Source of the DNA: Bacillota bacterium
GTDB lineage: Bacteria > Bacillota > Clostridia > Christensenellales > CAG-138
DNA length: 64,000 bases
NCBI GenBank assembly: GCA_016282255.1
Contig: JAEEKE010000030.1
Location: 20,575-84,574 of the forward strand
Direction: 5' to 3'
Of this stretch, positions 2,413 through 34,424 are shown in pieces (within the stretch, counting starts at the first letter, position 1; the number at the start of each line of letters is the position of its first letter). The translations under genes were made by a program, and so were the position numbers. The notes below the pieces were generated by a model. That model was not told where the DNA came from. It saw only the letters and a list, made by a program, of their open reading frames with translations, and ran no database searches.

Positions 2413-2413
2413 T

Positions 2414-5252: not shown

Positions 5253-5274
5253 ATCTGCCTCCTCGGCTCGGCCG

Positions 5275-5949: not shown

Positions 5950-6015
5950 TAGGCTTTCCTCTGACTTTCACCGCTGCTGTAGCCGGTTCCTTTGCATCTT
6001 TGTTCAACCGGCAGC

Positions 6016-7587
6016 TTATTTGCTGTCGGAATGCTTTTTCCTGGATCGGCTGCGTTTCTTATCGGACGATGAGCTGTCGCTCGATCCGTAACCGCCGTAG
6101 CCTCCATAGCCGCCATAGCTGCCGTAATGCCCGTAGCCGCCGTATCGTCCGTAACCGTAGCCGTATCCGTAGCGGCCGTAATGCCCATAATAGCCGTACT
6201 TGCCGTACGAACCGTAGTATCCGTACCTGCCGGTGTGTGAACCGCCGCCGTTGAGGATGCAGCCCGCGATCTTCGCTCCGCCGGCGTTGAGTTCCTCGAT
6301 GCCGTCAACGATATTCCGTCTGCGTGCGTAGTCGCACATGACAACGTAGGCTATCGTATCCACATGCTTGACCAGCATCATCGCGTCTACCAGCACCGCG
6401 GAAGGCGGCGTATCGAGCACGATAACATCGGCGAGCTCCCTCATTTCGGTCAAAAGCTTGCCCATCCTGTCAGTGCTGAGCACCTCTATAGAACGGGTCT
6501 CCTTGTCTGCGCCTGGCAGCAGACTCAGCCCTGCGGTTATCTTGGGATCGGAGATCTCAACGAGCGCATCGTCGAGGCTTGAAGTGCCGTCAAGCACGGA
6601 TCGAAGACCGGGATAGCTTCCTTCGAGATTGAACAGCCGGCCGACCGACGGGTTTCTTAGGTCGCAGTCCACAAGGATCACGCGTTTGCCCTTAAGCGCC
6701 ATGGAGATAGCGATATTGGCCGCGACCGTCGATTTGCCCTCGCCCGCGACGGAGCTGGTCACCATCAGTACCTTGTTTTCGCCGAGCGCGCGCTCGATTC
6801 GCGTCCTGATAAGACGCATCGACTCGACGTAGGCCGAACGGTTCGTATCATAGAGGATGTTTATCTCGCGCTTCGTCTCCTCATTGCGGTGCTTTTTGCT
6901 GAAGCAGGCGGGGAGCGTTCCGAGGCAATTGACGTTAACCGCCGAGCGGAGCTCGTCCTCGTTGCGTATCGTCCTTGTGACCGCCGCCCTGATGAAGACT
7001 ATGGCGAGTCCCAACGCAAGACCGACGAGCGCGCCATTGCGAACGGAACCGTGGATGACAGTCGTTTTGCCCGTGTCCGACGGAATGCCGCCGTCATCTA
7101 TCATGGTGATCTCGGTTTGGCCGATAACGTACTGCGCGACCTCAGGATAATTCTTAAGAGCGGAGCGAAGGATATTGTATGCTACCTCCGCATCGTTTGC
7201 CGACGCCTTTATAGTCAGAAGATTCGTACCGCTGATATTGCTTGTCCAGATGCTGCCCGGCACACTTTTCATATGAAGATCGGATGCAATTATATCCGAC
7301 AGCGCGCCGCTGGTAAGAATATAAGGGAAGATCTTCGCCATCTGTTCTGCGGTGTTGCGGCTTGCATATGACCCGCCGTTTAGGACCCTTACCGCAACGG
7401 TGGCTTCGGCGATATAGACAGGTGTGTAGCTGCGGGAGCTTCTTAAATACATGACAGCGCCGCCGAGGACTGTAAGGGCAAGCACAATATACCACATACG
7501 TTTGAAGCTGTGCCAATAATCCCTTACAAGGGCCATTATATCGATCTTTTTCAGTTCCTGAGTGGTATTGCTTTCCGCTTCGCTCAT
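6016..7587 (-). CDS. Wzz-domain/BY-kinase fusion (polysaccharide co-polymerase fused to tyrosine autokinase), copy 1
   Basis: 523 aa. Two TM segments flank a Wzz-like domain. Walker A VAGEGKST, Walker A' LVDCDLRNP, Walker B VIVLDTPP. The C-terminal tail carries 19 Tyr in 48 aa, followed by a Ser/Lys-rich end. Confidence 0.9.
   Translation of the reverse strand: MSEAESNTTQELKKIDIMALVRDYWHSFKRMWYIVLALTVLGGAVMYLRSSRSYTPVYIAEATVAVRVLNGGSYASRNTAEQMAKIFPYILTSGALSDIIASDLHMKSVPGSIWTSNISGTNLLTIKASANDAEVAYNILRSALKNYPEVAQYVIGQTEITMIDDGGIPSDTGKTTVIHGSVRNGALVGLALGLAIVFIRAAVTRTIRNEDELRSAVNVNCLGTLPACFSKKHRNEETKREINILYDTNRSAYVESMRLIRTRIERALGENKVLMVTSSVAGEGKSTVAANIAISMALKGKRVILVDCDLRNPSVGRLFNLEGSYPGLRSVLDGTSSLDDALVEISDPKITAGLSLLPGADKETRSIEVLSTDRMGKLLTEMRELADVIVLDTPPSAVLVDAMMLVKHVDTIAYVVMCDYARRRNIVDGIEELNAGGAKIAGCILNGGGSHTGRYGYYGSYGKYGYYGHYGRYGYGYGYGRYGGYGHYGSYGGYGGYGGYGSSDSSSSDKKRSRSRKKHSDSK
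6085..6228 (-). repeat. Coding (xYG)n trinucleotide-periodic repeat = Tyr cluster of kinase 1
   Basis: Encodes RYGYYGSYGKYGYYGHYGRYGYGYGYGRYGGYGHYGSYGGYGGYGGYG. The DNA is degenerate GTA-NCC-type 9-nt repeats. Confidence 0.9.
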
Positions 7588-7596
7588 ATCGGCACC

Positions 7597-9162
7597 TCAC
7601 TCATTGTCCGAGGGCTTGTTTGAGCTCTCGCCGTAATGCCCGTAGTAACCATAGGTCCCGTAGTTACCGTAGTGACCGTAGTTTCCGTAATTACCGTAAC
7701 GACCGTAGCGACCATATCTTCCGTAGCGGCCGTAGCGGCTGTAGTTGCCGTAGCGGCCGTAGCCGCCCTGACCGACCACCGACCTGCGCTGGAACGGCAG
7801 GGTCCTCAGCTGGTTCAGGATGCAGCCGGCAAACTTTGCCCGGCAGTCGTGCAGCGAATCTATGGCGTCGTTGATGTCCTGCGCATAGACCATGTCGTAA
7901 CTGACAACGAGTATGCTCATATCGGCGCGGTCGGCAAGGACCTCCGCGTCGGCCATCAGCGACATGGGCGGCGTATCTATGATTATGTAATCGAACGCTT
8001 TTCTCGATACCTCGAGCAGCTCGCTCATTATCTCGTTCGAAACAATATCGGTCGAATTCTGATAGTTTTTATAATTGAGCAGCAGGTAGATGCCGCGCTT
8101 CTCGTCGTAGCGCATGGTCTGCTTCATCGTGCTCTCGCCCATCAGCAGTCCCGCGAGGCTCGTCGGCGGTATCTCCTCGTCCTTCTCAAGGAAAAGGGTA
8201 TGCAGCGTCGGGCGGCGCATATCGCCGTCGATCAGCAGCACGTCGTTCGACTGCTGCGCGAGCGAAAGCGCAAGGTTCGCCGAAACAGTGGACTTGCCCT
8301 CGTGCTCCTGAACGCTGGTTACCACTATAACCTTAGCTCCTTGCTTCTGTGCAAGGGCGGAAACCATAGCCGAGATCTTCTTGTTTCTTTCCACGAACTC
8401 GAAGCTTGCCGAAAGCTCGGTGACCAGAAGCTTTTTCTTTTTCCGTTTGAACAGGGAGCGGAGCTTCATCCTGCGGTCGTAGTACAGCGCGCCGAGGGGT
8501 TTTGTTTCAAGCTTTTCTTCAATATCCTTTTCGCTTTTGATCGTGTCCTTTCGATAGGACAGGAACATGAATAGCAGGCAGAGAGCGCCGAATGAAAGCA
8601 CAAAAGCATACTTGGTCTGTCTTCTTGCGGATATGACTTTATCCGGTCTGGTCGGGACGTTCGGTTCCTGAAGGACCTCCATGACCATATCCGTAGATAC
8701 GTAGCCGGCAAGCTCCCTGAAATTTTTCATTATGGAATGGGTTATTCGATATGTATTCAGCGGTGCGTCCGAGGTCACCTTCATAGTCATCAGGTTCGTG
8801 CCCTTGATGACGCTTGCGGACATCGTCGCATCGAACGAGCTGATGCCCAGGTCCTTGCAGACCTTCTTTTTCATAAGGCTGCTGTTGAGGATATTCGAAA
8901 AGCTTTTGGCCATGGTCGAGGCCGCGGTAAGGTTGCTGTATACGTAGTTGCTGGAGGTTTTTGACGTCACGACAAAGGTTGCCGAGGACGAATATTTGTT
9001 TACATTTTTCGTTTTAACATAGATATTGACGACCAGCGCGACAGCTATCGCTCCGAGCAGGATCACCCAGCTGTTCCTGAGCAGGTCTCTGAGTATGCTG
9101 TAAACGTCTATGCGCTCTATCAGCGTTTCGGGATTTGTATTGGTTTTTGCGTTCGTTTCCAT
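7597..9162 (-). CDS. Wzz-domain/BY-kinase fusion, copy 2 (divergent paralogue)
   Basis: 521 aa with the same architecture. Walker A EHEGKST, Walker A' LIDGDMRRP, Walker B IIIDTPP. The C-terminal tail GYGRYGNYSRYGRYGRYGRYGRYGNYGNYGHYGNYGTYGYYGHYG has 16 Tyr in 45 aa. Confidence 0.9.
   Translation of the reverse strand: METNAKTNTNPETLIERIDVYSILRDLLRNSWVILLGAIAVALVVNIYVKTKNVNKYSSSATFVVTSKTSSNYVYSNLTAASTMAKSFSNILNSSLMKKKVCKDLGISSFDATMSASVIKGTNLMTMKVTSDAPLNTYRITHSIMKNFRELAGYVSTDMVMEVLQEPNVPTRPDKVISARRQTKYAFVLSFGALCLLFMFLSYRKDTIKSEKDIEEKLETKPLGALYYDRRMKLRSLFKRKKKKLLVTELSASFEFVERNKKISAMVSALAQKQGAKVIVVTSVQEHEGKSTVSANLALSLAQQSNDVLLIDGDMRRPTLHTLFLEKDEEIPPTSLAGLLMGESTMKQTMRYDEKRGIYLLLNYKNYQNSTDIVSNEIMSELLEVSRKAFDYIIIDTPPMSLMADAEVLADRADMSILVVSYDMVYAQDINDAIDSLHDCRAKFAGCILNQLRTLPFQRRSVVGQGGYGRYGNYSRYGRYGRYGRYGRYGNYGNYGHYGNYGTYGYYGHYGESSNKPSDNE
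7630..7764 (-). repeat. Coding (xYG)n repeat = Tyr cluster of kinase 2
   Basis: Read directly from the reverse complement: five consecutive RYG units encoded with different Arg/Gly codons, then N/H/T-YG units. Confidence 0.9.
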
Positions 9163-9166
9163 ACTG

Positions 9167-10024
9167 TTATCCCTCCACGATCACATAGAGCGTCGCGCTG
9201 CCCAGCCATTCTGTATGCTCTCGGGTAAGCTGATAAACGACCTTATATATGCCGGGCGTATTGAGGTCGAGCGAGCCTGTGTAAAAGCTGATATCCTGGG
9301 CGGTGAAATCCGTTTCGCTGAAGGACTGTTTGACCCCTGCTGTCCAGATACCGTCGATCAGCGCGCTGAAATTTATATTTTTACCCACTTTGGTATAGAT
9401 AATATAGTCGGAAAGCGAAGGCGAGGGCTTATTGTAAGTCGTATAATCCTCCATGCTGACGACCATATCGATCACCGCGCTGTCGCCGAAGGAATTCGTT
9501 ACCTGCATATTCATTTTCTGCTGGATAACGGTATCGCTGACGGCGTTCGTCTGACCGAAATTGATTTTGATCTGTCTCGTGATATCGCCGTCGATGCAGT
9601 CCTCGGCGGATACGTGCTCAAGGTAATCATAACTCGACGCACCCGAGGAAAAGCGCATGGGAGCGGTCATTCTGAAATGAGGAGCAGTATAATCCGTAAA
9701 CCTCACGGTCCGCGTTTTGGTGCCGACGTTGTTGCTGCTGTCGAACGCGGCGTAGTTTACGTGTATCGTTCCCGGCTCGATGAATTTGCTCTTTGAGGCG
9801 ACGACCAAAGAATCGGTGATGTCTCCGTCGACGTTGTCCGTCGCACGCATGCCGGCGAGCAGGTCCTCATCCGTTGCGGCAACGCTTACCTCGAGTTCAT
9901 CCGATTCGGCGGTTATGACCGGAGCGGTCGTATCCGAAGTGATTTTATCATATATATAGGAAGCGGAAAAGAAGGTTGCAACAGCGATAAAGAATATCAG
10001 TATTGCTATTCGAAGTCTTCCCAT
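9167..10024 (-). CDS. Membrane-anchored extracellular protein with Ig-like (DUF5011/HYR-type) repeats
   Basis: 285 aa. N-terminal TM IAILIFFIAVATFFSASYIY. Two copies of the D..DGDIT motif (ATDNVDGDITDSL, AEDCIDGDITRQI) typical of bacterial Ig-like DUF5011 domains. Sits between the phosphatase and the kinases. Confidence 0.55.
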   Translation of the reverse strand: MGRLRIAILIFFIAVATFFSASYIYDKITSDTTAPVITAESDELEVSVAATDEDLLAGMRATDNVDGDITDSLVVASKSKFIEPGTIHVNYAAFDSSNNVGTKTRTVRFTDYTAPHFRMTAPMRFSSGASSYDYLEHVSAEDCIDGDITRQIKINFGQTNAVSDTVIQQKMNMQVTNSFGDSAVIDMVVSMEDYTTYNKPSPSLSDYIIYTKVGKNINFSALIDGIWTAGVKQSFSETDFTAQDISFYTGSLDLNTPGIYKVVYQLTREHTEWLGSATLYVIVEG

Positions 10025-10086
10025 CCAATTCTCCTCCCTTTCAGATCATGTAATCAGGCTGCACCGATCGGCAGCGTATTCGTCCA

Positions 10087-10836
10087 TTAGTATATCGGTA
10101 TCGGCTCGAGTCCGAGAAGCCGCTTGCCCTCGAGTATCCTTGAGGGGTTCTCCGACAGCAGCAGCATCGCGTACTGCTCCCCGAAGTTGTCTGTCAGGTA
10201 CTCTTTTATCCCGCCCATGAACGTCGTCCGCCGGATGACGCCGTGCGCGTCGCTCGCAACGCAGGCCGCCAGGCCGTGATCTACGAGGAGCTCGGCGATC
10301 TCCTGCGTTTCACGGCCGAATTTGCCGAGCAGGCTCGCTTTGTTGAGCTGAAGGCCGTAGCCCGAAATACACCAGTTGAAAGCAAGCTGCGGATCCTCCT
10401 GTATGCAGCGATAGCGTTCCGGATGCGCTATGATCGGGCAAAAGCCCATTGATGCGCAGCGCCTCAGTATCTCGCTGCAGTAATCGGGCTCCTCTTCGAA
10501 ATCGAACTCCGTAAGGAAATAGTTCGTGCCGTTGAGCGTCCACACCCGGCCGTCCCGAAGCAGCTGAGGCAGGTCGTCCGTAGCGAAGATCTCCATGCCC
10601 TTCATTATTTTGATCGGGATCCCGGCTTTCTCCGCCTCGCTTTCAAGCTGATCGAACAGCATATCGAGTTTTTCCGACGCGTAATTGCCGAACTCGTCGG
10701 GTATATTGCAGTGCGGTGTGGCGACTATCGTCTTCACTCCGCTCCGCGCGGACGTCAGCAGCATTTCGACCGAAGTCTCCATGCTGTCCGACCCGTCGTC
10801 GATGCCCGGAAGGATGTGGGAGTGGATATCTATCAT
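10087..10836 (-). CDS. cpsB: CpsB/CapC-type manganese-dependent protein-tyrosine phosphatase (PHP family)
   Basis: 249 aa. The N-terminus MIDIHSHILPGIDDGS, plus TPHCN and ASDAH, are hallmark PHP-type CpsB/YwqE motifs. Confidence 0.9.
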   Translation of the reverse strand: MIDIHSHILPGIDDGSDSMETSVEMLLTSARSGVKTIVATPHCNIPDEFGNYASEKLDMLFDQLESEAEKAGIPIKIMKGMEIFATDDLPQLLRDGRVWTLNGTNYFLTEFDFEEEPDYCSEILRRCASMGFCPIIAHPERYRCIQEDPQLAFNWCISGYGLQLNKASLLGKFGRETQEIAELLVDHGLAACVASDAHGVIRRTTFMGGIKEYLTDNFGEQYAMLLLSENPSRILEGKRLLGLEPIPIY

Positions 10837-10844
10837 CTCAACGT

Positions 10845-12626
10845 TCAGAACTCCATTGCCTCGATGCTCGACTGCGCTTCATCGAGTTCGGTGACGCTCC
10901 TGTCCTTCACACGGTAGACGCGGCTGCAGAGATTCAGCACGGTCGGTCGGTGCGTCGTAACGATGCAGGTCTTGTTCGGCTTGCTGGTAACGATGTTGCG
11001 CAGGACCTGGCGTTCGGTCGTTACGTCGAGCGCGGAGGTCGCTTCGTCGAGCAGCAGGACCGGTGCGTCGCGCAGTATCGCCCTTGCGATCGCAAGGCGC
11101 TGCGCCTGCCCCTCGGAGAAGCCGCGGCCCCTCTCGCCCACCTTGCTGTTTATGCCGTCCGGCAGAGCGGAAACGAAATCATATGCGCACGCTATCTTCA
11201 GCGCTTCGATTATCTCCTCGTCGGTCGCATCCTCGCGGACCAGGCGCATGTTCTCGGCCACCGTTCCCGAGAGGATCGTATTCCCCTGCGGAACGTAGGA
11301 GAAGAACGCTCTGCTGTCGGCATTCATTTCGACCTCGGTGCCGTCGGATGCTCTGAGGAAGGCCGTGCCCTTGTCCGGCAGGATGAGGCCGAGCATGAGG
11401 CGGATCATCGTGGTCTTGCCCTCGCCCGAGGGTCCGATCAGCGCCACGATCTCGCCCGGAGCGGCTTTAAAGCTCGAGCCGGTGATGACCTCCTTGCCTT
11501 CAACGTAGGCGAAGTCGACGCCTTCCATTCTGACCTCGAAGCCGTCTTCCGCAAGCGCTTTCAGCTCCTCGCTCTCCGGGATATGCCGTTCTCTCGGAAG
11601 GTCGATCAGCTCCCTGATACGGTGAGCGGAGACCGAGCTCGTCAGGAACTGCGGCACTATGCCGACGACGCTGTTGAACGCGCTTGAAAGCCGGACCCTT
11701 TGCTCGAGGAAGAGCGTCATCGTGCCGTAGCTTATCGCGTGGGTCCACAGCAGGAACAGGCAGTAGCCGAACGCCGCATACTGAACGATCATCCCGAGCA
11801 CGGACATGAATATGTTCGTCTTGATCGTGAACATATTGTATTCCAGGCTGATCTCCTTGAGCTTCTGCTGCCATTCACGCAGCTTCCGCCCGCAGGTCTT
11901 CATGATGCCGAAGGACTTGATGGTATCGAAGTTATAGAAGGTCTCCACCTCGAACGCCATCATCTCGCTGCCCTTTTCCTTGACCTTCTTGGCGTATTCC
12001 CTCTGCTTGCTGATGAAGTACTTGCTCATCAGCAGCATGACGGGCGCCGAAGCGAACGCGATCAGGGACATGATCTTATCGTAATGCCATATCAGTATGA
12101 ACGTTACGATGAAGTTATAGACGGCTATTATAATAGAAGGAAGCCAGCTTATCGCGTTCTTGCTGACGGTCTGCACGTCGCTGTTGAAGCGGTTGAGCAG
12201 GTCGCCGCTCGAATAGCCGCTTATCGCCTTCCAGTCCACGTCGATTATCCTGTCGAAGATATCGGCCTGGATATCGTTGTTGATATGGATGCCGATCTTC
12301 GCGGAGAGCCTGCTGATAAGGCTCGAGAAGACCAGGCTGAAAACCGCGCTCGAAAGTATTATCACTATCAGTATGCTGAGCTTGCTCGTCTGGTAGCCGG
12401 TGATGATGTCGATCATGTACTTGCCGGCGACGCTGCCGACAAGCCCGAGCGTGGTGCTAAGTATCCCGAGTACCGTGTAAAACACCACCGCCCACCTATG
12501 GCGCCTGGTATAGGTAAAGATCCAGCGCCAGTCCTCAACTATTTCGCCGAAGTTGCCGTCACGCCATTTTTTCGACAGCGTGCTCAGCGAATTGAAAAGA
12601 ATGCGGTTTTCCCCTATCTTCCTCAT
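10845..12626 (-). CDS. ABC exporter, fused permease/ATPase (type I exporter, MsbA/McjD-sized), no peptidase domain
   Basis: 593 aa. Six predicted N-terminal TM helices. Walker A GPSGEGKTT, signature FSEGQ (variant of LSGGQ), Walker B VLLLDEATSALD. It is 8 nt upstream of cpsB, making it the first gene of the EPS operon. Confidence 0.9.
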   Translation of the reverse strand: MRKIGENRILFNSLSTLSKKWRDGNFGEIVEDWRWIFTYTRRHRWAVVFYTVLGILSTTLGLVGSVAGKYMIDIITGYQTSKLSILIVIILSSAVFSLVFSSLISRLSAKIGIHINNDIQADIFDRIIDVDWKAISGYSSGDLLNRFNSDVQTVSKNAISWLPSIIIAVYNFIVTFILIWHYDKIMSLIAFASAPVMLLMSKYFISKQREYAKKVKEKGSEMMAFEVETFYNFDTIKSFGIMKTCGRKLREWQQKLKEISLEYNMFTIKTNIFMSVLGMIVQYAAFGYCLFLLWTHAISYGTMTLFLEQRVRLSSAFNSVVGIVPQFLTSSVSAHRIRELIDLPRERHIPESEELKALAEDGFEVRMEGVDFAYVEGKEVITGSSFKAAPGEIVALIGPSGEGKTTMIRLMLGLILPDKGTAFLRASDGTEVEMNADSRAFFSYVPQGNTILSGTVAENMRLVREDATDEEIIEALKIACAYDFVSALPDGINSKVGERGRGFSEGQAQRLAIARAILRDAPVLLLDEATSALDVTTERQVLRNIVTSKPNKTCIVTTHRPTVLNLCSRVYRVKDRSVTELDEAQSSIEAMEF

Positions 12627-12634
12627 TATACCTA

Positions 12635-12663
12635 ATTATACAACAAGAGCATCCCGATTGCAA
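12635..12663 (-). promoter_or_regulatory. SigA-type promoter TTGCAA-N17-TATAAT positioned for a leaderless ABC-exporter mRNA
   Basis: Minus strand: -35 at 12663-12658, 17-nt spacer, -10 at 12640-12635. Only 8 nt separate the -10 from the ATG (12626-12624). There is no Shine-Dalgarno sequence. Confidence 0.5.
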
Positions 12664-12701
12664 CATATAGTTCCGCTTTGTAAGCTTTCCTTTTTTTATA
12701 T

Positions 12702-12732
12702 ATTGAAAAACCAAAAATATTTTATTTTCAAT
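12702..12732. promoter_or_regulatory. 8-bp perfect inverted repeat ATTGAAAA-N15-TTTTCAAT in the divergent control region (candidate operator)
   Basis: Arms at 12702-12709 and 12725-12732. A third TTGAAA lies at 12736-12741. The repeat lies between the two divergent promoters in an AT-rich stretch. Confidence 0.25.
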
Positions 12733-12745
12733 TAGTTGAAATGCG

Positions 12746-12774
12746 TTGACACAAGCCACAACATGTTGTATAAT
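12746..12774 (+). promoter_or_regulatory. Perfect consensus SigA promoter TTGACA-N17-TATAAT
   Basis: TTGACA at 12746-12751, exactly 17 nt, then TATAAT at 12769-12774. An AT-rich UP-like region lies upstream. About 100 nt downstream are SD AAAGGAGG (12857-12864) and the TTG start at 12873. Confidence 0.7.
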
Positions 12775-12872
12775 GAGTATTAATTGGAATATTATGCGCG
12801 CAGGATATGTAAACAGCGTATAATTAACTAAGAAACCAATACTTTTCACACATTCAAAAGGAGGAAAGTAAG

Positions 12873-15800
12873 TTGAAAAAGCGTTTTGCGAAGATCCTTT
12901 CACTCGCGCTGGCTCTGATCATGGTCCTCTCCGTGCTGCCCACCGCTGCGCTCGCGCAGACCTCCGGCACCCGCAGGGCTTCCGTGCTCACCGACTGGGC
13001 CGACTGGATCATCGGCTGGATCATCCCCAGGCCGAAGCCCCGTCCCACCTATCCGGCGCAGACCCTGTCCTTTGAAGGGCGGGGCGGCACCCTCGTGTCC
13101 GTTGACGCGCCTGCCGGCGCTCTCCCGGCGAACACCTCGCTCGAGATCAACGACACGATCAACGCGACCGTACTTCAGGATGCGTACGACAGGCTGGCTG
13201 ACGAGCGCGGCACCGTTCTCAAGGCTGTCGACATCAGCTTCCTGAACAGCACCGGCAATGAGGTCGAGCCCCGTCAGGCCGTGACCGTCACTCTTTCGAG
13301 CGACGTTATCGCCGAGCTTGACGAGTTCACCCTCGTGCACTTCGACTGCTCTGCCGATGAGCTCGGCAACAGCAACGTCCATATGGAAGTCATCGAGGAT
13401 TGCTACGTATCCGGCAGCACCGTCACCTTCGAGGCGACGGACTTCTCCGTATACGCGGTTATCGGGGATCCTGGCGCTTCCCATGACGATGCTCGTCTCA
13501 CAGTAAATTTCCGTAAGCTGGAGAACAACAACGGCTCAATCGTGAACAGCATCGTTACAACAGTCTACGTCAAGAATACCGATGTGTATCTCGGTGATGG
13601 CGAGCGCGTTGATACCGTTCAGTACATTGAAGACATCGTTTTCGATCCCGGCGTCGGCGGTACTCTCGGCAAGGGTCTCCTCTTTGGCGGTTGGTCCATC
13701 GATGATCCTGAGGCAAATCCTTCCGGCAGCAATTACGGCGCGGCGTATGACCCCAACACCAAGGCCTACACCATTCCCGGTATCTGCGAGTACATCGGCG
13801 GGAAGGCCGGAACCTTCAAAGAGGGCGATGTGCTTGATATCTATGCTCTTATCTATAAGGTTTACGATATCACCTACGAGGACCAAAACGGCATCACGCT
13901 CTCGTCCGATATCGCCTTGATGTCGCTTTCCGCTTCCGTGGCGGATTTCACCATCAAGGAATCCTACAGGCCTAACGACCAGGTAACCAACTTTGAAGGC
14001 TGGCAGGTCAAGGAGGGCAGCGGCTACATCTCCGACGCCAGCGCGGCACTGCCCTATCCCATGGGCACAAGCATGAAGCTCAGCGGCGACGTTGTCTTCT
14101 CCACCGTGCTCGCCCCCGGCCATTGGCTCGTGTTCGAGGAGAACGGCTACGGCGCAACCTACAATGCGCCTATCTTCATCAAGTCCGACGAAGTCTCCCG
14201 CAAGCCCAGACCCGACAGCGAGATGGTCCGCCCCGGTTACACCTTCGGCGGCTGGTACACCGACGAAGCCTGCACCGACGGCAATGAATACACTTTCGGG
14301 CAGGCTCTTGACGACCGTCTTGTGCTCTACGCAAAGTGGACTATGGCAGCGACGGCCGACTACACCGTCATCATCTGGAAGCAGAATATCGACCGCGACG
14401 GATATGACTATGTTGAATCCATTCCGATGAACGGAACCACTGCCACCGCCATCAGTCCTATTACTCCTAGCGGCGAACACGGTGTGAGCGTAAACAACAG
14501 GACTATCACGTACGACGGTTTCACTCGCTGGAGTTATGATACCAGTAAGAAGATCGATCCTGCCGGCGGTACGGTTTTCAATGTTTACTTCAACCGCAGG
14601 ACGTATACTTTACTCTTCCAGGATTACACGTATACTCGCAATAACAATGGCACTTATGTCTACTGGCCCGGCGGGTATTTAAGAGTTGTAAGCGGCAACT
14701 GGTGGAATACTACGGTTAATTACTATTATTATCCCGAGGGGTATTACAGCAGCAGCAACAACAACGATACCAACGAAGGCGATTACGGTGTAGGCCCCAG
14801 CCCTGTTAGCGGTGTAAACAATAATTCTACAGTCACTTATTATACTGCGAAGAATGACAATTCTGCTGCGACCTATACTGCACACAGGTATAGTCGAAGC
14901 AATAACAGAACTACTGTTTATAGCATTGAGGGATACTACGAGCAGGCTATCATCAGTCATTTCCCGATCGAAGGCACGAACGGTATAACATATGACGACG
15001 GTCAGCGTTGGGATCCTGTAGGAAGTTCGACTTTCACCAGAGTTATTCTTTCGATGGAGCTGATGCCGGCGGAGAATGTTACATTCTATATGAATCCCGG
15101 TACCAAGAGGCCTCTGAAGACCATGAATTACTACGTTGAGGCCCTGCCCGGCACAACGGAGAACACGGTCACCTATGGCGGAAAGACTTTCACGCTTTAT
15201 AAAACCGTTGTTGCTCGTTATAACATGGTTACCGAGGCAGAGGACTTTATCGAGATCAAGGGTTATTCGCATTTTGCTGCAAATCCTGCCTTCAATGATA
15301 ACGGCGTAGCTCTCAACGACAGCTCCACCGACCAGTCCATTAACCTTTATTACTCAAGGAATGTCTATAATATCATTTACCTTGACGGCGACTATTTCAA
15401 CAGGTATGGCTCCATGTCCGACGGCAGGCCCAGTGATCAGGGTCAGTTCAAGGTGGATCCCAATATCTATTTCAATGCCGATATCAGCGCATACGGTAAG
15501 GGCGGCGCCTCCGAATACAAGCCCACTACCACGGGGTTTGTGTTTGACGGCTGGTACGTTGATAAGCAGTGCACAACCGAGGCGCAATTTGAGAAAATGC
15601 CCGCCGGCGACAAGACGGTCTATGCAAAGTGGAGGCTGATCGAATACCGCGTGTTCCTTAAGCCCAACGCTCTTGTAAACGGAGTTCGTGACAGCTCGCT
15701 TGACTGGGGCGATGACGATCAGGCCACCAACTTCCGTATCGATTACAACGGCAAGGTCTCCCTTCCCACCGGTCATAGGTTCGCATACGAATTCGGCGGC

Positions 15801-17681
15801 TGGTTTACAGATGAATCGCTCGACCATATGTTTGACGACTCCACGAAGCTGACCGATGCGACCGTTCCCGCCGAACCCGTCTATGATAAGTCCGTTGACT
15901 TTACCGACGGCGATGGCGATCCCACCATTGATATGGACCCGTGGGGCCTTATCCCCGACGGTGTTACTCCGATCAACAAGGACGTCGACCGTTATTGGAT
16001 CACCCGCAAGCTCAACCTCTATGCCCGCTGGAGCAAGCTGATCCCCGGCGCGAGCGGTGTAGGTATCCTCTACAATGCAAACGGCGGCAGCAACGCTCCC
16101 TCGGATTCCCGCCTTTACAAGGACAATATCAAGGCAATCGCACAGGCAGCTTCCACTCCCAATAATACTGAAACTCAGAAGTTCATGTACTGGGTGATGC
16201 AGAAGTGGGATGGTGAGAAGTATGTTGACGCATACAAGGATGAGGTTGAAGAGGGCGCGGCACATGAGCTTATGATCATCTATCCCGGTGAGCGCTTCAC
16301 GGTCAAGCTCGATCTGGCCAAGCAGGAACCCCGTCTTGATGAAAACGATGTTCAGATGACCGATCCCATTACCGGCGACCCGCTTTGGATCTACACAGTC
16401 GAGCTCAAAGCGGTATACGGCGAAGTTGACACGCCTACCCCCACCCATATCTGGTGGTTTGCGAACAATGAGACCGATCAGGTCCAGAAGGATAACGATC
16501 TCCAGATCAACGAAGCCATCCTCATCCCCACTCCCGAAACCTTCGATTTCGGCGCTAAGGACGGTACGACCGGTCTTGTGTATGAGAATCACATCTTCCT
16601 CGGCTGGGCAAAGGTTACTGCACTCTCCGATAATCCTACCGATGACGAGATCGCTGCTCGTCAGAGCCAGATCGACGCTCTTGATGAAACCAAGCTCTTC
16701 CTCAGGTGGATCCCGGATGATCAGCTTGAGGCAGGCGGCAAGTACCAGGCTAAGTATCCTGTTGATTCGAACAACTGGGTCGATGTTACTGAGGTCGCTG
16801 CAAATGAGATCATGCCTTATGATGATATGATCGCGGTTTGGGGCTCTGTGTTCTATATTTATCACTCCGGTGATAAGTCTGTTGAGAAGGTCGTCTTTAC
16901 CAAGGCTAACAGTGAATTTGATCTCGCAGCCAGGACCACTGAAGGCTTCCTGTATGGCGGTTATTACACCGACTATGCCGGAATTGCCTCAACGTTCAGC
17001 GCTGAAACAGCAATTGAGTGGGAAGCTTTCGATCCTACTAAGATTGCCGATGGTTTCTACTTCCAGAACAAAAAGGTCGTTGACGGCGAAGAAGTCAAGT
17101 ATTTTGACGAAGCGTCCGGTGTCGCTGCTTATGACGGCAATACGGCCGGTGTTTGGAATTGGGCAGATGCAATCAAGGATGTAAAGGGTACCAAGGCTGC
17201 ACCCAAGGCCGGCGATACCTATTACATCAAGGAAGTCCCCGCTTCCAAGTATCTGCAGCCCTATCTGCACTATACCTATGATCTCGGTTCCGGTTACATC
17301 TCCAAGATCTGGATCATTTCCGCGATCGACGATGGCAACTACAATCAGGCCGGTTTCGTGGTCATTGACAGCAGCAACAGAGCGAGTGTCTGCAATAACC
17401 TTTACATTAAGAGTGCTGAAGGCAATTACACCATCACGCTTAATGCGCAGACTGTCTTCTCCGGCAGAGGCGTGCAGCGCGGCTATCTTACCTACAAGGC
17501 CTATACCCCTGCATCCAACCTCACGGATAAAACAATCCTGAACTACTGGTTAACTCCTGATGGCGTGCTTGTAACCGGAACAACGAACCGCAAGGTTCTC
17601 ACTCCGACTCATATCGACAGTATCGGTGTAACGGATACCCCCTGCACATCGACGCTCGATAGGTACCAGCCTGCCAATTGA
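12873..17681 (+). CDS. Giant secreted protein (1602 aa) with multiple Listeria-Bacteroides (Flg_new/InlB-B-type) repeats; no recognisable wall anchor
   Basis: TTG start 8 nt after AAAGGAGG. Signal peptide MKKRFAKILSLALALIMVLSVLPTAALAQ. Repeated motifs GYTFGGWYTDEACT...LYAKW, GFVFDGWYVDKQCT...VYAKW, YEFGGWFTDESL and LFGGWSIDDP. Central Tyr/Asn-rich low-complexity segment (YYYYPEGYYSSSNNNDTN). No LPXTG, C-terminal TM, SLH or choline-binding motif seen. Confidence 0.85.
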   Translation: MKKRFAKILSLALALIMVLSVLPTAALAQTSGTRRASVLTDWADWIIGWIIPRPKPRPTYPAQTLSFEGRGGTLVSVDAPAGALPANTSLEINDTINATVLQDAYDRLADERGTVLKAVDISFLNSTGNEVEPRQAVTVTLSSDVIAELDEFTLVHFDCSADELGNSNVHMEVIEDCYVSGSTVTFEATDFSVYAVIGDPGASHDDARLTVNFRKLENNNGSIVNSIVTTVYVKNTDVYLGDGERVDTVQYIEDIVFDPGVGGTLGKGLLFGGWSIDDPEANPSGSNYGAAYDPNTKAYTIPGICEYIGGKAGTFKEGDVLDIYALIYKVYDITYEDQNGITLSSDIALMSLSASVADFTIKESYRPNDQVTNFEGWQVKEGSGYISDASAALPYPMGTSMKLSGDVVFSTVLAPGHWLVFEENGYGATYNAPIFIKSDEVSRKPRPDSEMVRPGYTFGGWYTDEACTDGNEYTFGQALDDRLVLYAKWTMAATADYTVIIWKQNIDRDGYDYVESIPMNGTTATAISPITPSGEHGVSVNNRTITYDGFTRWSYDTSKKIDPAGGTVFNVYFNRRTYTLLFQDYTYTRNNNGTYVYWPGGYLRVVSGNWWNTTVNYYYYPEGYYSSSNNNDTNEGDYGVGPSPVSGVNNNSTVTYYTAKNDNSAATYTAHRYSRSNNRTTVYSIEGYYEQAIISHFPIEGTNGITYDDGQRWDPVGSSTFTRVILSMELMPAENVTFYMNPGTKRPLKTMNYYVEALPGTTENTVTYGGKTFTLYKTVVARYNMVTEAEDFIEIKGYSHFAANPAFNDNGVALNDSSTDQSINLYYSRNVYNIIYLDGDYFNRYGSMSDGRPSDQGQFKVDPNIYFNADISAYGKGGASEYKPTTTGFVFDGWYVDKQCTTEAQFEKMPAGDKTVYAKWRLIEYRVFLKPNALVNGVRDSSLDWGDDDQATNFRIDYNGKVSLPTGHRFAYEFGGWFTDESLDHMFDDSTKLTDATVPAEPVYDKSVDFTDGDGDPTIDMDPWGLIPDGVTPINKDVDRYWITRKLNLYARWSKLIPGASGVGILYNANGGSNAPSDSRLYKDNIKAIAQAASTPNNTETQKFMYWVMQKWDGEKYVDAYKDEVEEGAAHELMIIYPGERFTVKLDLAKQEPRLDENDVQMTDPITGDPLWIYTVELKAVYGEVDTPTPTHIWWFANNETDQVQKDNDLQINEAILIPTPETFDFGAKDGTTGLVYENHIFLGWAKVTALSDNPTDDEIAARQSQIDALDETKLFLRWIPDDQLEAGGKYQAKYPVDSNNWVDVTEVAANEIMPYDDMIAVWGSVFYIYHSGDKSVEKVVFTKANSEFDLAARTTEGFLYGGYYTDYAGIASTFSAETAIEWEAFDPTKIADGFYFQNKKVVDGEEVKYFDEASGVAAYDGNTAGVWNWADAIKDVKGTKAAPKAGDTYYIKEVPASKYLQPYLHYTYDLGSGYISKIWIISAIDDGNYNQAGFVVIDSSNRASVCNNLYIKSAEGNYTITLNAQTVFSGRGVQRGYLTYKAYTPASNLTDKTILNYWLTPDGVLVTGTTNRKVLTPTHIDSIGVTDTPCTSTLDRYQPAN

Positions 17682-17713
17682 CGGCAGTTGAACATTAGAA
17701 AGAGGTAAAACAA

Positions 17714-17998
17714 ATGGCTAAAACATATTTTACTTTCCCTAAGATTCTCTTTGGTGGTTTAGGTGATATCGGCGATGCTACCGAACCTGCTCAGACCGGT
17801 CAGGGTACCACTGACCCCTATCCCTGCAGCTTTGCTGACTGGCAGCATCTGTTTGGAACGGATCTCAACAACGATGGCAACATCGATGAAGATGATTACT
17901 TGATTTGGTGGAACAATCAGAACTATACCAATGATGATTGGTCGAGGGTAAACCCCGGTTCAACGTTTCCGCCGTCCACCCCTCCCAACGAACCGTAA
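17714..17998 (+). CDS. Small acidic Trp-rich protein (94 aa) with a single EF-hand/dockerin-like Ca-binding loop
   Basis: SD AGAGG lies 8 nt upstream. There is no signal peptide. Motif DLNNDGNIDEDDYLIWWNN matches DxNxDGxIDxxD followed by hydrophobics. Pro-rich C-terminus STFPPSTPPNEP. Followed directly by a hairpin. Confidence 0.7.
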   Translation: MAKTYFTFPKILFGGLGDIGDATEPAQTGQGTTDPYPCSFADWQHLFGTDLNNDGNIDEDDYLIWWNNQNYTNDDWSRVNPGSTFPPSTPPNEP

Positions 17999-18006
17999 CA
18001 ACAAGA

Positions 18007-18034
18007 AAGCGGGGGCTTTGTCCCCCGCTTTTCC
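18007..18034 (+). terminator. GC-rich hairpin with short U tract (intrinsic terminator/attenuator)
   Basis: AAGCGGGGG-CTTTGT-CCCCCGCTT (9-bp stem) followed by only about 4 T. The next gene starts 13 nt later without its own promoter or SD. Confidence 0.7.
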
Positions 18035-18046
18035 TAAGAAAAAAGC

Positions 18047-18811
18047 ATGCAACGCAACATGATCTTCCGCGTAAAGTATGCGGGACACGAACTCAGATAT
18101 CTGTTTCATTATGATGAAACGAGGTACAATTTCAGAGATTATGCTTATTTTTGTCGTGATGACGAATACGATATCTGTGCATCAAATGAGGTCATAGAAC
18201 CTGTGCGAAGAATACTCCCCGCAGATGCGTCTGAAGGCTACATCGAGTACAGGGCAATGATTTCTATAACCGCACGGGAGCTGCTGCGATTCGGGGCTTG
18301 CATCTTTCATTCCGTTGCGTTCGTGTACAGGGGCCGGGCATGGCTGCTGACGGCGCCGAGCGGGGTCGGGAAGACGACGCAGTTTCTGAACTGGCAGAGG
18401 CAGCATCCCGGCGAGATCGAGATGATCTGCGGGGATATGCCCGTGCTCGCGCCCGAAGCGGACGGGCGGATACACGTCTATTCAACGAGCTGGTGCGGCA
18501 AGGAGAACATGGGCAATAAGGAGCTGACCGCGCCGCTTGCGGGCATCGTTTTGCTTGAGCAGGGCTCGGAGAATCAACTCTCTCCCCTGCCTCCCGCCGA
18601 CTGCGTGATGCCGTTTTTCAGGCAGTTCGTGGTACTTCCGGAGACCGAGGAGCAATGCCTTGCATTGACCGGTTTGATGAGCAAGGTGCTTGAAAGCGTG
18701 CCCGTGTGGAAGCTCGTCAATCTCGGCGACGCCGCTTCAACCGAAATGCTTCGTGATGCGTTTAATACTATGATGGATGGACCGATCGGAGGCGCAAATG
18801 ACCCGCTATAA
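18047..18811 (+). CDS. HPr-kinase-C-terminal-like P-loop protein (HprK-related kinase)
   Basis: 254 aa. Walker A LLTAPSGVGKTTQF embedded in a fold-sized (~250 aa) protein, as in HprK-related kinases of PqqD-containing cassettes. No SD upstream. Its 3' end overlaps the PqqD gene by 14 nt. Confidence 0.6.
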   Translation: MQRNMIFRVKYAGHELRYLFHYDETRYNFRDYAYFCRDDEYDICASNEVIEPVRRILPADASEGYIEYRAMISITARELLRFGACIFHSVAFVYRGRAWLLTAPSGVGKTTQFLNWQRQHPGEIEMICGDMPVLAPEADGRIHVYSTSWCGKENMGNKELTAPLAGIVLLEQGSENQLSPLPPADCVMPFFRQFVVLPETEEQCLALTGLMSKVLESVPVWKLVNLGDAASTEMLRDAFNTMMDGPIGGANDPL

Positions 18812-19088
18812 AACACGCCCGGGCGTGGTACTGACGGCGATCTGCGGCAAGCAGATCCTTGTGGCCACGAAGACCGCGCGCGAATCCTGCCCCTACGTGA
18901 CCGAGATCAACGAGACCTCCGCTTTCCTTTGGGAGCGGCTTCGAGGCGGCGCGGATATCGATGCGCTGATGGACGCCGTGAATCGGGAATACGAGGTCGA
19001 GGATCCCGCGCTTGCGCGAAATGCCGTCCTCTCGTTCATCGGTCAGATGCTCGAGCTGAATTATCTCGAACAGACAGAACAAGAATAA
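18798..19088 (+). CDS. PqqD-family protein (RiPP-recognition-element-type peptide chaperone), copy 1
   Basis: The ORF track gives 18777..19088. The preferred ATG is 18798, with GGAGG 5 nt upstream. The ~96-aa sequence ...VTEINETSAFLWERLRGGADIDALMDAVNREYEVEDPALARNAVLSFIGQMLELNYL fits the PqqD pattern (N-T-a-IW-L, Y-V, D-V--F---L). Confidence 0.7.
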   Translation: MTRYKTRPGVVLTAICGKQILVATKTARESCPYVTEINETSAFLWERLRGGADIDALMDAVNREYEVEDPALARNAVLSFIGQMLELNYLEQTEQE

Positions 19089-19100
19089 CAGGAGCATTCT

Positions 19101-19442
19101 ATGAAAAGAAATGGTTTCAAAGCAGTATTTGTGGTCGCGGTTTGCTTTGTGATGATCCTTTCGATGATCGCTTTGCAGGCATGCCGCAAACAGCCGTCGT
19201 CCGGCGATAACACAGCCGAACCCGCTGCCGACAATGGCACGCCGATACCTGCGGTCGATATCACGCCCGATCCCGAAGTCACGGATGAAGTGCCCGACAC
19301 CGCTGTGCCCGATGTGACTCCCGACCCGACTATCGAGCTGACAGAGGATCCCAACGCGACTGACGACGGTCCGCATCTGATCGACAACGGTGATGATATC
19401 GTTATTGAGATCCCGTCCGGTCAGGGGTCCGGTGGCCTTTGA
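19101..19442 (+). CDS. Small acidic lipoprotein-like protein (Thr/Pro/Asp-rich)
   Basis: SD AGGAG lies 7 nt upstream. Signal peptide with lipobox-like IALQAC. The mature part is low complexity (TPDPEVTDEVPDTAVPDVTPDPT). Its stop TGA overlaps the next ATG (TGATG). Confidence 0.65.
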   Translation: MKRNGFKAVFVVAVCFVMILSMIALQACRKQPSSGDNTAEPAADNGTPIPAVDITPDPEVTDEVPDTAVPDVTPDPTIELTEDPNATDDGPHLIDNGDDIVIEIPSGQGSGGL

Positions 19443-20674
19443 TGCTGGTTTCGGATAAAAGCGCAAATATTTTGCTCAATGCCCTGAGATGCTCTCTTCG
19501 AGGCATTGAGTTTGGTTTTGATGAGCCGATCGACGCCGCAGAATGGTATCGCCTCTTTCATATTGCCGAGGAGCACCGCGTACTGCCGCTGTTTACGGAC
19601 GCTGTGTACGACAGCAAGGCGCTGAAGGAGTATCCCAAGCTTCAGAAGCGCTTTATCGATGCCGCGACCGCCGAGACGATTACCCAGGCGCGGCGCACCG
19701 GCGAATTCCTGGAGTTTTTTCGCGATCTGCTGTCGCGCGGGCTCAGGCCCGTCGTTCAGAAGGGCATTATTTGCCGAAGCATCTACCCCGTTCCCGATCA
19801 GCGCGGCTCGGTCGATGAGGATCTGCTGATAGAACCGGATGATTTTCGGAAATATGCCGACGCGATGGCCGAGCTCGGGCTGAAGCGGATTGATATCAAC
19901 ACCGATCAGACGATGGAATCGGCTTATAAGGACGATTCCCGCGGGCTTTACATAGAGCTGCACTGCTCGGCCTTCTCCGAGGATTCGGAGGCTTACGGCG
20001 ACTGCAACGCACCCTTCAACGGCGCGCTCGAACGCGCTGTCAGCATCGAATACATGGGTACGGAGCTCTTAACGCTTTCGCCGAGTGATCATCTGCTGTA
20101 TCTGATCCTGCATGCCTACAAGCATTTTCTGCACGGCGGATTCGGCATAAGGCAGGTCATGGACATCTGTCTGTTTGCGCAGCGGTATGCGGACGAGATC
20201 GGGTTTGACGGCGTGCTCGGATGGCTTTTAAAACTGAAGCTCGAGCGCTTCTCCGCGGCGATTTTCCGGATCGGCGAGAAGCATTTCGAGATCCCGATGC
20301 CCGAGGCTTTCGCGAAGTTCGATGACGACGAATGCCCGCTGCTGAACGATATCCTGACCGGAGGGCTGTACGGCGTTGCCGACGTTAACCGTATGCACTC
20401 GGTCACGCTGACGCTCGACGCAGCCGCCGCATCGAAGCACGGCCAGCACAGGAGCGTGCTCGGCTCCGTTTTCAGGCCCGCAAAGGAGCTTGCCGGCCGG
20501 TATCCGTACCTGCGCCGCCGCCCGTGGCTGCTGCCCGTTGCATGGGTGCAGAGGGTGCACGGCTATCTGGTGAAGCGAAAGAAACAGAGCAGCGTCGATC
20601 CCGCGGAATCTATCCGCATCGGCAAGGAGAGGATCGGACTGATGCGGCAATACGGGATCATCGACAGAGAGTAA
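19442..20674 (+). CDS. Uncharacterised nucleotidyltransferase family protein (NTP_transf_5-like), copy 1
   Basis: The ORF track gives 19439..20674 (TTG). An ATG at 19442 overlaps the preceding stop. Pattern ...VLPLF...LRPVVQKGIICRSIYPVPDQRGSVDEDLLIEPDDF...LHAYKHFLHGGFGIRQVMDI is typical of the PF14907-type family. Confidence 0.65.
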   Translation: MLVSDKSANILLNALRCSLRGIEFGFDEPIDAAEWYRLFHIAEEHRVLPLFTDAVYDSKALKEYPKLQKRFIDAATAETITQARRTGEFLEFFRDLLSRGLRPVVQKGIICRSIYPVPDQRGSVDEDLLIEPDDFRKYADAMAELGLKRIDINTDQTMESAYKDDSRGLYIELHCSAFSEDSEAYGDCNAPFNGALERAVSIEYMGTELLTLSPSDHLLYLILHAYKHFLHGGFGIRQVMDICLFAQRYADEIGFDGVLGWLLKLKLERFSAAIFRIGEKHFEIPMPEAFAKFDDDECPLLNDILTGGLYGVADVNRMHSVTLTLDAAAASKHGQHRSVLGSVFRPAKELAGRYPYLRRRPWLLPVAWVQRVHGYLVKRKKQSSVDPAESIRIGKERIGLMRQYGIIDRE

Positions 20675-20679
20675 CACTA

Positions 20680-20706
20680 AAGCATCCGCAGCTGCGGATG
20701 CTTTTC
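20680..20706. terminator. Bidirectional intrinsic terminator (perfect palindrome)
   Basis: AAGCATCCGCAGCTGCGGATGCTT followed by TTTC. Lies between convergent genes ending at 20674 (+) and 20747 (-). Confidence 0.75.
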
Positions 20707-20746
20707 AGTTTGGAAAAGGATGTTCCTTTTCTTATTCTTATGCTTT

Positions 20747-27689: not shown

Positions 27690-27936
27690 AGGACGCCTCC
27701 TGTTAATTTTTGGGGTACTATAAATATACTTCATTTTGGCAGAAATTTCAATAGGCAAAATCGATTATCGGGCCGTTTTGCGCCGAAAAAACGCTTCTTT
27801 GCAAGACGACAAGTGCCGAAGCTTTGCCTTGCCATTTTCACCGTTTGAGGGTATAATGTATTTGTGAAGATTTATGCCGATGAGACCGGGGATCTCCCTT
27901 CATCGGCCGACAAGAAATAAGATCGGTGTTTATGAT

Positions 27937-34377: not shown

Positions 34378-34424
34378 AGTCTTTCCTTTCAGATGCTGTT
34401 GCAGCGTCGTTTTTATATTACTGT

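Follow-up and report, generated by a model that had tools for sequence, protein, structure and literature searches.

A predicted leader-peptidase-less relative of the LPP systems, linked to a giant secreted protein, in gut Clostridia

We analyzed a 64,000-nucleotide stretch (hereafter, the window) of contig JAEEKE010000030.1 from a Bacillota bacterium of the Clostridia, focusing on a seven-gene locus in which a giant secreted protein, a small acidic protein of 94 residues (hereafter, S94), a P-loop protein, a PqqD-type protein, a lipoprotein and a nucleotidyltransferase-fold protein are encoded next to a divergent ATP-binding cassette (ABC) exporter. By analogy with characterized systems, S94 is probably guided to the P-loop kinase and the nucleotidyltransferase, modified and exported, in a giant-protein-linked relative of the linear polyphosphorylated peptide (LPP) clusters that lacks a leader peptidase. 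The LPP clusters, lppA-K-B-S-D-N, occupy capsule loci of Bacilli including Paenibacillus (Popov et al., Nat Commun, May 2026, PMC13381572). The initial annotation, made from the letters alone, had concluded that the locus is not a classical pathway to a ribosomally made peptide with post-translational modifications (RiPP); that statement is superseded by LPP, a RiPP class with an HprK-like kinase as its primary enzyme and the same K-B-N-D core. On its sequence features, the system is best filed as LPP-like in mechanism, as an undescribed variant and not as something categorically new. It is not filed as an LPP member as published, because the SpI peptidase, one defining feature, is missing. 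The elements of the locus are as follows.

10845-12626, minus strand: ABC exporter of 593 residues, a transmembrane domain–nucleotide-binding domain, MsbA-like half-transporter
12873-17681, plus strand: giant secreted protein of 1602 residues
17714-17998, plus strand: S94, an acidic, Trp-rich protein of 94 residues, the predicted precursor/substrate
18006-18031, plus strand: GC-rich hairpin with a T tract (TTTTCC directly after), resembling an attenuator or intrinsic terminator
18047-18811, plus strand: P-loop protein, predicted kinase, 254 residues from the first ATG
18798-19088, plus strand: PqqD-type RiPP recognition element (RRE), LppB-like, 96 residues
19101-19442, plus strand: acidic protein of 113 residues with a signal peptide and a Cys (lipobox-like), a lipoprotein
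19442-20674, plus strand: NTP_transf_5 nucleotidyltransferase-fold protein, LppN/PsmN-like, 410 residues

The analysis itself shows the gene content, the synteny, the fold, the homology to LppK, LppB, LppN and LppD, the leader motif, its covariation with the RRE and the hairpin. The seven genes had been placed at these positions beforehand, and all seven open reading frames (ORFs) are present; the GC hairpin and the two start/stop overlaps described with it are equally real. The 14-nt overlap couples the kinase and PqqD genes and has the identical length in four homologous loci (L001, L004, L006 and L007). The second overlap, TGATG at 19440-19444, joins the stop codon of the lipoprotein to the start of the nucleotidyltransferase gene, which places the latter at the ATG at 19442. 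The database copy of the P-loop protein (P0001) begins at 18059 and has 250 residues, and 18059 is likely the true start.

The P-loop protein carries the Walker A motif APSGVGKTT and had been called HPr-kinase-like. At the level of sequence models this label does not hold: neither PF07475 of Pfam nor TIGR04352 of NCBIfam matches, and TIGR04353 scores 15.3 bits where 35 are required; at the curated thresholds, the assignment to the HPr-rel-A system thus fails. The lasso-B1 models of NCBIfam stay far under threshold too, and a kinase-profile search of PDB sequences found nothing beyond generic P-loop matches. At the level of the fold and of a newer Pfam family, the label stands. Precomputed matches to PF27840 (“ScmC”) exist for P0001 and most of its homologues, some of them marked weak. 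The AlphaFold2 model, for which 46 homologues were used, reaches a pLDDT confidence score of 93.3, and Foldseek ranks the HprK/P structures 1kkl, 1jb1 and 2qmh first (E ~2e-7), followed by phosphoenolpyruvate carboxykinase (PEPCK). In addition, BLASTP aligns the protein with LppK at 24% identity over 138 residues (E 3e-13), with the His, P-loop, Asp and PLAGI motifs in register, and the hidden Markov model (HMM) of the kinase family scores 76.8 bits on LppK. His84, the Walker A motif and Asp126 are invariant in the family. Because of the precomputed PF27840 match, the structural match to HprK/P and the homology to LppK, we retain the kinase-like label, and the protein is predicted from the model to be an LppK-like Ser/Thr kinase of the HprK/PEPCK fold that acts on the precursor. 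With HprK/P itself it shares the P-loop fold and the best structural matches, whereas PF07475 is unmatched and there is no HPr context. The SynChlorMet system (ScmC/ScmD) likewise shares the precomputed PF27840 match and the pairing of a kinase with a PqqD-family protein, but TIGR04249 (ScmC) reaches a best score of 17.3 bits against a cut-off of 125, TIGR04248 scores 13.6 against 100, and no ScmE/ScmF radical SAM/SPASM partners lie nearby. A literature search on PF14907/NTP_transf_5, ScmC and SynChlorMet returned nothing useful.

The family assignments proposed for the PqqD-type and the NTP_transf_5-type protein were borne out. The 96-residue protein matches PqqD (PF05402) at 44 bits, over the cut-off of 23.4, and the PqqD HMM scores 43.9 bits on LppB. 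The 410-residue protein matches NTP_transf_5 (PF14907) at 148 bits (cut-off 31.2); LppN matches PF14907 at 129 bits and belongs to the same Pfam family, and the HMM of the cassette's nucleotidyltransferase family scores 55 bits on LppN. A PDB sequence search with this protein gave no informative match. The exporter consists of ABC_membrane (109 bits) and ABC_tran (90 bits), and the Pfam scan found no peptidase domain in it, in agreement with its earlier description as lacking a C39 domain. Its nearest NCBIfam models are of the MsbA type, and it aligns with the LppD of a Paenibacillus reference locus (L087) at 28% identity over 456 residues (189 bits). By analogy with LppD, it is the probable exporter of the modified small protein.

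How would the small protein be recognized? The N-terminus of S94, MAKTY-F6-T-F-P9-K-I11, contains an F-x-x-P-x-I motif, and its gene is preceded by a good ribosome-binding site. The published leader motif bound by the RREs of lasso B1 proteins and LPP is [Y/W]xxPx[L/V/I/F/A] (PMC13381572 and its reference 25). A homologue search with S94 itself returned two sequences only, and the family was rebuilt from ORFs beside kinase homologues. In the alignment of the small ORFs 5′ of the kinase genes, an N-terminus M-x-K-K-x-[F/Y/W]-x-x-P-x-[I/L/V] is fixed, and all S94-type homologues carry [F/Y/W]xxPx[I/L/V] 4-6 residues after the Met. The pattern [YFW]xxPx[LIVMFA] lies within the first 25 residues of 38 of the 80 ORFs upstream of the kinase, as compared to 4.4% of the background, defined as the other 40-200-residue ORFs of the same loci. 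Past the leader, S94 has a Gly-rich T-G-Q-G-T-T segment, after which comes an acidic/aromatic region that contains a DxNxDGxIDxxDY loop; the family pattern is G-[ST]-G-Q-[STG] (longer form, G-[ST]-G-Q-[STG]-[GST]), followed by an acidic, Trp-rich part with a DxDGDGxxDxxDY loop. P9 and W43 are invariant. The loop recalls a type I dockerin, a candidate that we rejected: the score is 14.3 bits against 22.9, the match covers a single loop whereas a dockerin has two Ca-binding repeat segments, and just 2 of the 22 family members match even at the sub-threshold level.

The partner of the leader varies together with it. In the crystal structure of LppB with LppA, Asp70 forms a hydrogen bond to the Tyr of the leader, the Pro kink being fixed by Asn33, and the leader substitutions Y-16A and P-13A weaken RRE binding (PMC13381572). 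We aligned 42 cassette PqqD proteins to LppB. Asn occupies the position of Asn33 in 37 of them, including that of the window. At the position of Asp70, an Asp or Glu is found in 13 of the 19 cassettes with a Tyr leader and in none of the 23 with a Phe or Trp leader; the window pairs Ala at this position with its Phe leader. In Solobacterium (L024), a Trp/Thr and a Tyr/Asp leader-RRE cassette lie side by side, convergently, in one genome. As far as an alignment can indicate, this covariation fits a direct contact between leader and RRE.

A hairpin between precursor and enzyme genes is the usual route by which RiPP operons obtain an excess of precursor transcript. A hairpin (-20 to -33 kcal/mol) follows the small gene, at the corresponding intergenic position, in 27 of 28 loci, and the hairpin at 18006-18031 is predicted to be an attenuator-like element between precursor and enzymes. 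The initial annotation had noted both S94 and this hairpin, correctly, and had overlooked the leader motif and the attenuator design. Upstream of the giant gene, a sigma-70-like promoter site (12746-12774, plus strand; TTGACA-17-TATAAT) matches the consensus at 12 of 12 positions, and the ABC gene has a promoter-like site of its own in the divergent direction (12663-12635, minus strand); both are consensus matches only. An Rfam scan of the whole window matched no family, which argues that no riboswitch precedes the operon. A terminator-like hairpin with a 9-bp stem (20712-20732, plus strand) just past the stop codon of the NTP_transf_5 gene probably marks the operon end. Beyond it are two small convergent ORFs and then the Lon protease; in locus L001, the ORFs between cassette and Lon include a Coat_F-family homologue.

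Is the cassette a unit? A kinase-family profile scan over one genome per species gave at least 471 confirmed matches, and 78 loci were read, with their ORFs matched by HMMs built from the window proteins; the comparisons span up to 85 related loci. Nearly all hosts are Clostridia of the rumen or gut (Oscillospiraceae, Christensenellales-like, Lachnospiraceae) or Erysipelotrichaceae, with rumen and human gut as the main sources. The dominant gene order, found in dozens of species-level genomes, is giant protein, small protein, kinase, PqqD, lipoprotein and NTP_transf_5. PqqD adjoins or is fused to the kinase in 74 of 82 loci, with four natural fusions (P0091, L035, L042 and L058). In 47 of 71 loci, NTP_transf_5 is encoded downstream of the kinase gene at a distance of no more than 2.5 kb, and in 43 of the 74 whose flank is long enough, a giant homologue ends upstream of that gene, no more than 1.5 kb away. 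From 100% down to ~30% identity, several families retain the gene order, the overlaps and the catalytic motifs. This recurrence and conservation indicate that the cassette is a selected unit and not a chance assembly.

Several loci depart from the dominant arrangement. Several genomes have two cassettes: in L007/L012 these are in tandem, and in L071 one of the two neighbors is of the giant type, the other a canonical LPP-like set that includes an SpI-like peptidase (2103-2597). A third clade has the order giant protein, lipoprotein, a different acidic/aromatic protein of ~86 residues, kinase, PqqD and NTP_transf_5 (small genes: L056 9652-9918, L066 9554-9817, L077 1109-1369, L067 5021-5296, L083 7629-7886 and L085 9460-9726); the end of its small protein, K-S-T-Q-G-I-G-G-like, resembles both the G-x-G-Q-S-G segment of the S94 family and the lipoprotein tail. 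Finally, kinase-PqqD pairs without a giant gene have upstream peptides of 58-67 residues ending in ...DG[SR]xVxxDxxGNIV (L032, L036, L037, L039, L043, L046, L048, L079 and L081), and these peptides probably form a further family of precursors for the pair.

The LPP clusters provide the closest functional model. On Ser3 of the core, LppK installs as many as four phosphates, and deletion of lppK abolishes the corresponding +80 Da series; LppB is the RRE, LppS a SipW-like leader peptidase and LppD an MsbA-like pump, while LppN is an NTP transferase whose activity was not detected in a heterologous host (PMC13381572). The lpp reference loci used here were recovered by exact primer matches. The window shares with them the core of LppK-, LppB-, LppN- and LppD-type proteins, the lack of a macrolactam synthetase, the setting in a capsule or exopolysaccharide (EPS) locus, and a precursor of 35-200 residues with an N-terminal aromatic-x-x-P-x-aliphatic motif. 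In contrast, the window has no SipW-like LppS, and a conserved acidic lipoprotein takes its slot; its leader lacks the HQxIxFET that LppS reads and uses Phe; its core, of ~65 residues, is acidic and Trp-rich, whereas the LPP core is a Gly/Asn-rich tail; a giant secreted protein with Flg_new repeats is predicted to be co-transcribed with its precursor; and the hosts are rumen or gut Clostridia and Erysipelotrichaceae, whereas those of LPP are Bacilli. The lipoprotein in the LppS slot shows no similarity to LppS and matches no Pfam family. Its C-terminal tail, IVIEIPSGQGSGGL, is kept across the loci with the pattern phi-x-phi-P-x-[GD]-[QM]-x-S-G-G-[LF]; since some matches of the lipoprotein HMM are driven by low complexity, its homologues were assigned by position and by this C-terminal motif.

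Taking these observations together with the published experiments, we propose the following course of events. The giant and S94 genes would be transcribed from the strong promoter, and the hairpin would pass a part of this transcription into the enzyme genes. PqqD would then bind the F-x-x-P-x-I N-terminus of S94 and present the protein to the HprK-fold kinase.

The kinase would phosphorylate, possibly repeatedly, a Ser or Thr past the leader, for which the G-[ST]-G-Q-[STG]-[GST] segment is the best guess. The NTP_transf_5 protein may add a group, a sugar or a nucleotide, to the phosphate, as PsmN does in pseudomycoidin, and the MsbA-like pump would export the product into a surface layer of polysaccharide and giant protein. 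As the cassette is not accompanied by a peptidase, the product may keep its leader. The phosphorylation, its decoration, the export and the retention of the leader are inferred from experiments on LppK, PadeK and PsmN in other species.

A number of observations weigh against this scheme. The LppS-type G/S-x-S-M-x-P motif occurs in no real ORF of the window, and an LppS homologue is found in one of 85 related loci (L071), there within the separate canonical LPP-like set. Pairwise identities to the Lpp proteins are low, at 23-28%, and LppN was inactive in the sole experiment on it. With regard to recognition, the leader aromatic of the window is Phe, outside the published [Y/W] set, and the extended LPP leader consensus VLxHQxIxFETxxS is not in S94; the Phe and Tyr groups correspond for the most part to two clades, so the independent changes behind the covariation may be few; and the ~86-residue protein of the third clade lacks the N-terminal motif, where the RRE may recognize something else. 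Moreover, the S94 family alignment has no invariant Ser or Thr, which leaves the acceptor site a guess.

Could the giant protein be the true substrate? The enzymes might act on it, or on another secreted protein, before export, with S94 as an accessory or chaperone. The giant is the most constant neighbor of the kinase (43 of 74 loci) and stands beside every S94-type gene. It has a Sec-type signal peptide and three stretches of Flg_new (Listeria-Bacteroides) repeats (77.5 bits), and its conservation across cassettes peaks at residues 1300-1580, so that a conserved C-terminal region of ~280 residues is available for such a role. The model of this region is beta-rich, a beta-sandwich (pLDDT 69), and its comparison with PDB structures gave generic Ig-like matches only, none significant. 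Its N-terminus, a Sec signal peptide, contains no [YFW]xxP, whereas all S94 homologues carry the motif and it co-varies with the RRE; and in the other 31 of the 74 kinase-PqqD loci no giant homologue lies upstream of the kinase, many having a short peptide gene instead. The Paenibacillus lpp loci might seem to lend this idea support, as a secreted protein of ~573 residues is encoded directly upstream of lppA (L086 1093-2814, minus strand; L087 75-1070, plus strand) and echoes the order of giant and precursor; no homology, however, connects these two large proteins. We therefore regard modification of the giant as unlikely. At the outset, S94, one end of the giant and the EPS machinery had been suggested as substrates; the evidence favors S94, and nothing favors the other two.

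A second alternative arises from the genes on the other side of the exporter, where the head of a polysaccharide operon, assigned with Pfam and NCBIfam, travels with the cassette.

4416-10836, minus strand: polysaccharide operon head as a whole
10087-10836, minus strand: CpsB phosphatase, assigned from precomputed PF19567 matches on homologues and HMM matches, not from the scan of window ORFs
9167-10024, minus strand: Ig-like membrane protein
7597-9162 and 6016-7587, minus strand: two Wzz/tyrosine-kinase fusions
5275-5949, minus strand: priming sugar transferase (Bac_transf)
4416-5252, minus strand: HpcH aldolase-like protein

Leftward from the ABC gene, this first polysaccharide locus also has a dehydrogenase, an ATP-grasp protein and a 523-residue ORF. 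In ~15 other genomes, the cassette is followed by a collinear series of ABC exporter, CpsB, Ig-like protein, a pair of tyrosine kinases, sugar transferase and HpcH (L004, L006, L010, L011, L016, L018, L021, L023, L067, L077 and others), relative to which the half from ABC to HpcH is inverted in the window. EPS genes lie within 10 kb in 13 of the 21 giant-type loci with full flanks, and the tandem cassettes of L007 have none in the 20.7 kb read (~10 kb around the kinase gene). The link of the cassette to this operon head is real, as had been suspected when it was called not accidental, and it is not obligatory.

The cassette might accordingly modify polysaccharide or lipid-linked intermediates by phosphorylation and nucleotidyl or phospho-sugar transfer, with PqqD as a scaffold and the pump flipping a glycolipid. 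The tight collinearity with CpsB, both tyrosine kinases, the priming transferase and HpcH across ~15 genomes would suit this proposal, as would the MsbA-like character of the pump and the failure of LppN to modify a peptide in the heterologous host. A second NTP_transf_5 gene, predicted earlier and confirmed here at 141 bits, also lies in a second EPS locus of the window with neither a kinase nor a PqqD partner. PqqD-type RREs bind peptides, however, and here the ligand motif is present and co-varies with the RRE; the homologues LppK and PadeK phosphorylate peptides; and the exceptions to the EPS linkage (L007, and 8 of the 21 giant-type loci) count against a polysaccharide substrate. We consider this possibility improbable as well.

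The set of kinase, split PqqD, nucleotidyltransferase, ABC pump and YxxP-type leader equals the tailoring and recognition set of paeninodin-type clusters. In the paeninodin/pseudomycoidin type of lasso cluster, the HPr-kinase homologues PadeK and PsmK phosphorylate a precursor Ser, and PsmN adds a hexose to the phosphate (PMC8498205). The cassette shares with this type the HPr-kinase homologue, the nucleotidyltransferase, the split PqqD for a [Y/W]xxP leader and the ABC exporter; it differs in having no match to a lasso cyclase or B2 protease (B2 by general scans only) and a substrate about twice as long. Pfam and NCBIfam scans found no lasso cyclase, YcaO, LanM or RiPP-type radical SAM enzyme among the window ORFs, and no B2 protease turned up in these general scans, in which no dedicated B2 model was used. 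A single radical SAM gene occurs in the window (27874-29856); it is of a housekeeping type with DUF2344 and lies next to RNase G. The earlier observation that no RiPP core enzyme (cyclase, B2, radical SAM/SPASM, YcaO or LanM) lies in or near the operon thus agrees with these scans. One ORF, 862-2433 (minus strand; 523 residues), has a sub-threshold Asn_synthase match in the PP-loop region (19.8 bits), which could be taken for the remnant of a cyclase; we rejected this candidate, as it has no similarity to the Paenibacillus cyclase of L087 and no NCBIfam lasso match. It adjoins the sugar-transfer-associated ATP-grasp gene and is probably a polysaccharide-modifying enzyme. The initial annotation had allowed that homologous cassettes might always be adjacent to a lasso core, as expected of simple decay; a phmmer search with the genuine Paenibacillus cyclase found a homologue in 0 of 85 related loci. 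With gene order, overlaps and catalytic motifs conserved to ~30% identity, which speaks for selection, a decayed, non-functional paeninodin-type cluster that has lost its cyclase and B2 is hardly credible.

Elsewhere in the window, a second polysaccharide locus (34.9-52.5 kb) encodes UDP-sugar enzymes, a flippase, LicD, Wzy, glycosyltransferases, LytR and the second NTP_transf_5 protein. Two features of this region had been pointed out previously, and both are present.

34425-34685, minus strand: second, orphan PqqD; PqqD 36.6 bits, with weak lasso-B1-type NCBIfam matches
48310-49497, plus strand: second NTP_transf_5; PF14907 141 bits, inside the second polysaccharide locus

The neighborhood of the orphan PqqD (33874-34685) contains neither a kinase nor an obvious YxxP peptide gene adjoining it; the next ORF encodes a helical protein of 167 residues without a family match. 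The second NTP_transf_5 protein aligns with LppN at 29% identity over 155 residues (55 bits), as compared to 27 bits for the cassette's own copy. For LppN, it has been speculated that a partner encoded outside the core cluster is needed (PMC13381572). The head of the second locus is formed by an odd enzyme-regulator fusion (34945-36447, plus strand), a UDP-glucose/GDP-mannose dehydrogenase with an N-terminal Cro/C1-type helix-turn-helix (HTH_3/HTH_31, residues 8-65). In the first locus, the Wzz/tyrosine-autokinase fusion at 7597-9162 (minus strand) has at its end an RYG/NYG repeat tail of unusual length, GYGRYGNYSRYGRYGRYGRYGRYGNYGNYGHYGNYGTYGYYGHYG, with far more Tyr than the usual C-terminal Tyr clusters.

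What might the modified S94 do? One speculative answer, to which we give a low probability though not quite as low as to modification of the giant or of polysaccharide, is that S94 is a phospho-glycosylated or nucleotidylated surface adaptor, exported by the pump with its leader kept, whose Ca-binding-loop domain, with the lipoprotein, would tether the giant protein and/or the exopolysaccharide to the cell. As part of the same tentative picture, and with no greater likelihood, the kinase and the NTP_transf_5 protein would jointly build a phosphodiester-linked group, as PsmK and PsmN do on pseudomycoidin. If this were true, RiPP-type recognition would have been reused for cell-envelope assembly, and the LPP-like systems would have a first biological role.

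The LPP study searched by way of the SipW-like peptidase, and cassettes without a peptidase were therefore invisible to it. The S94 cassette represents a large, conserved, peptidase-less branch, in which the core of kinase, RRE, transferase and pump is tied to a giant protein, a lipoprotein and the regulatory head of a Wzy-type operon. To the published rule on leader discrimination it adds the leader-RRE pairs Phe/Ala, Tyr/Asp and Trp/Thr. The system offers a concrete and testable connection of phosphorylated RiPP-like proteins with the surface or biofilm architecture of gut anaerobes.

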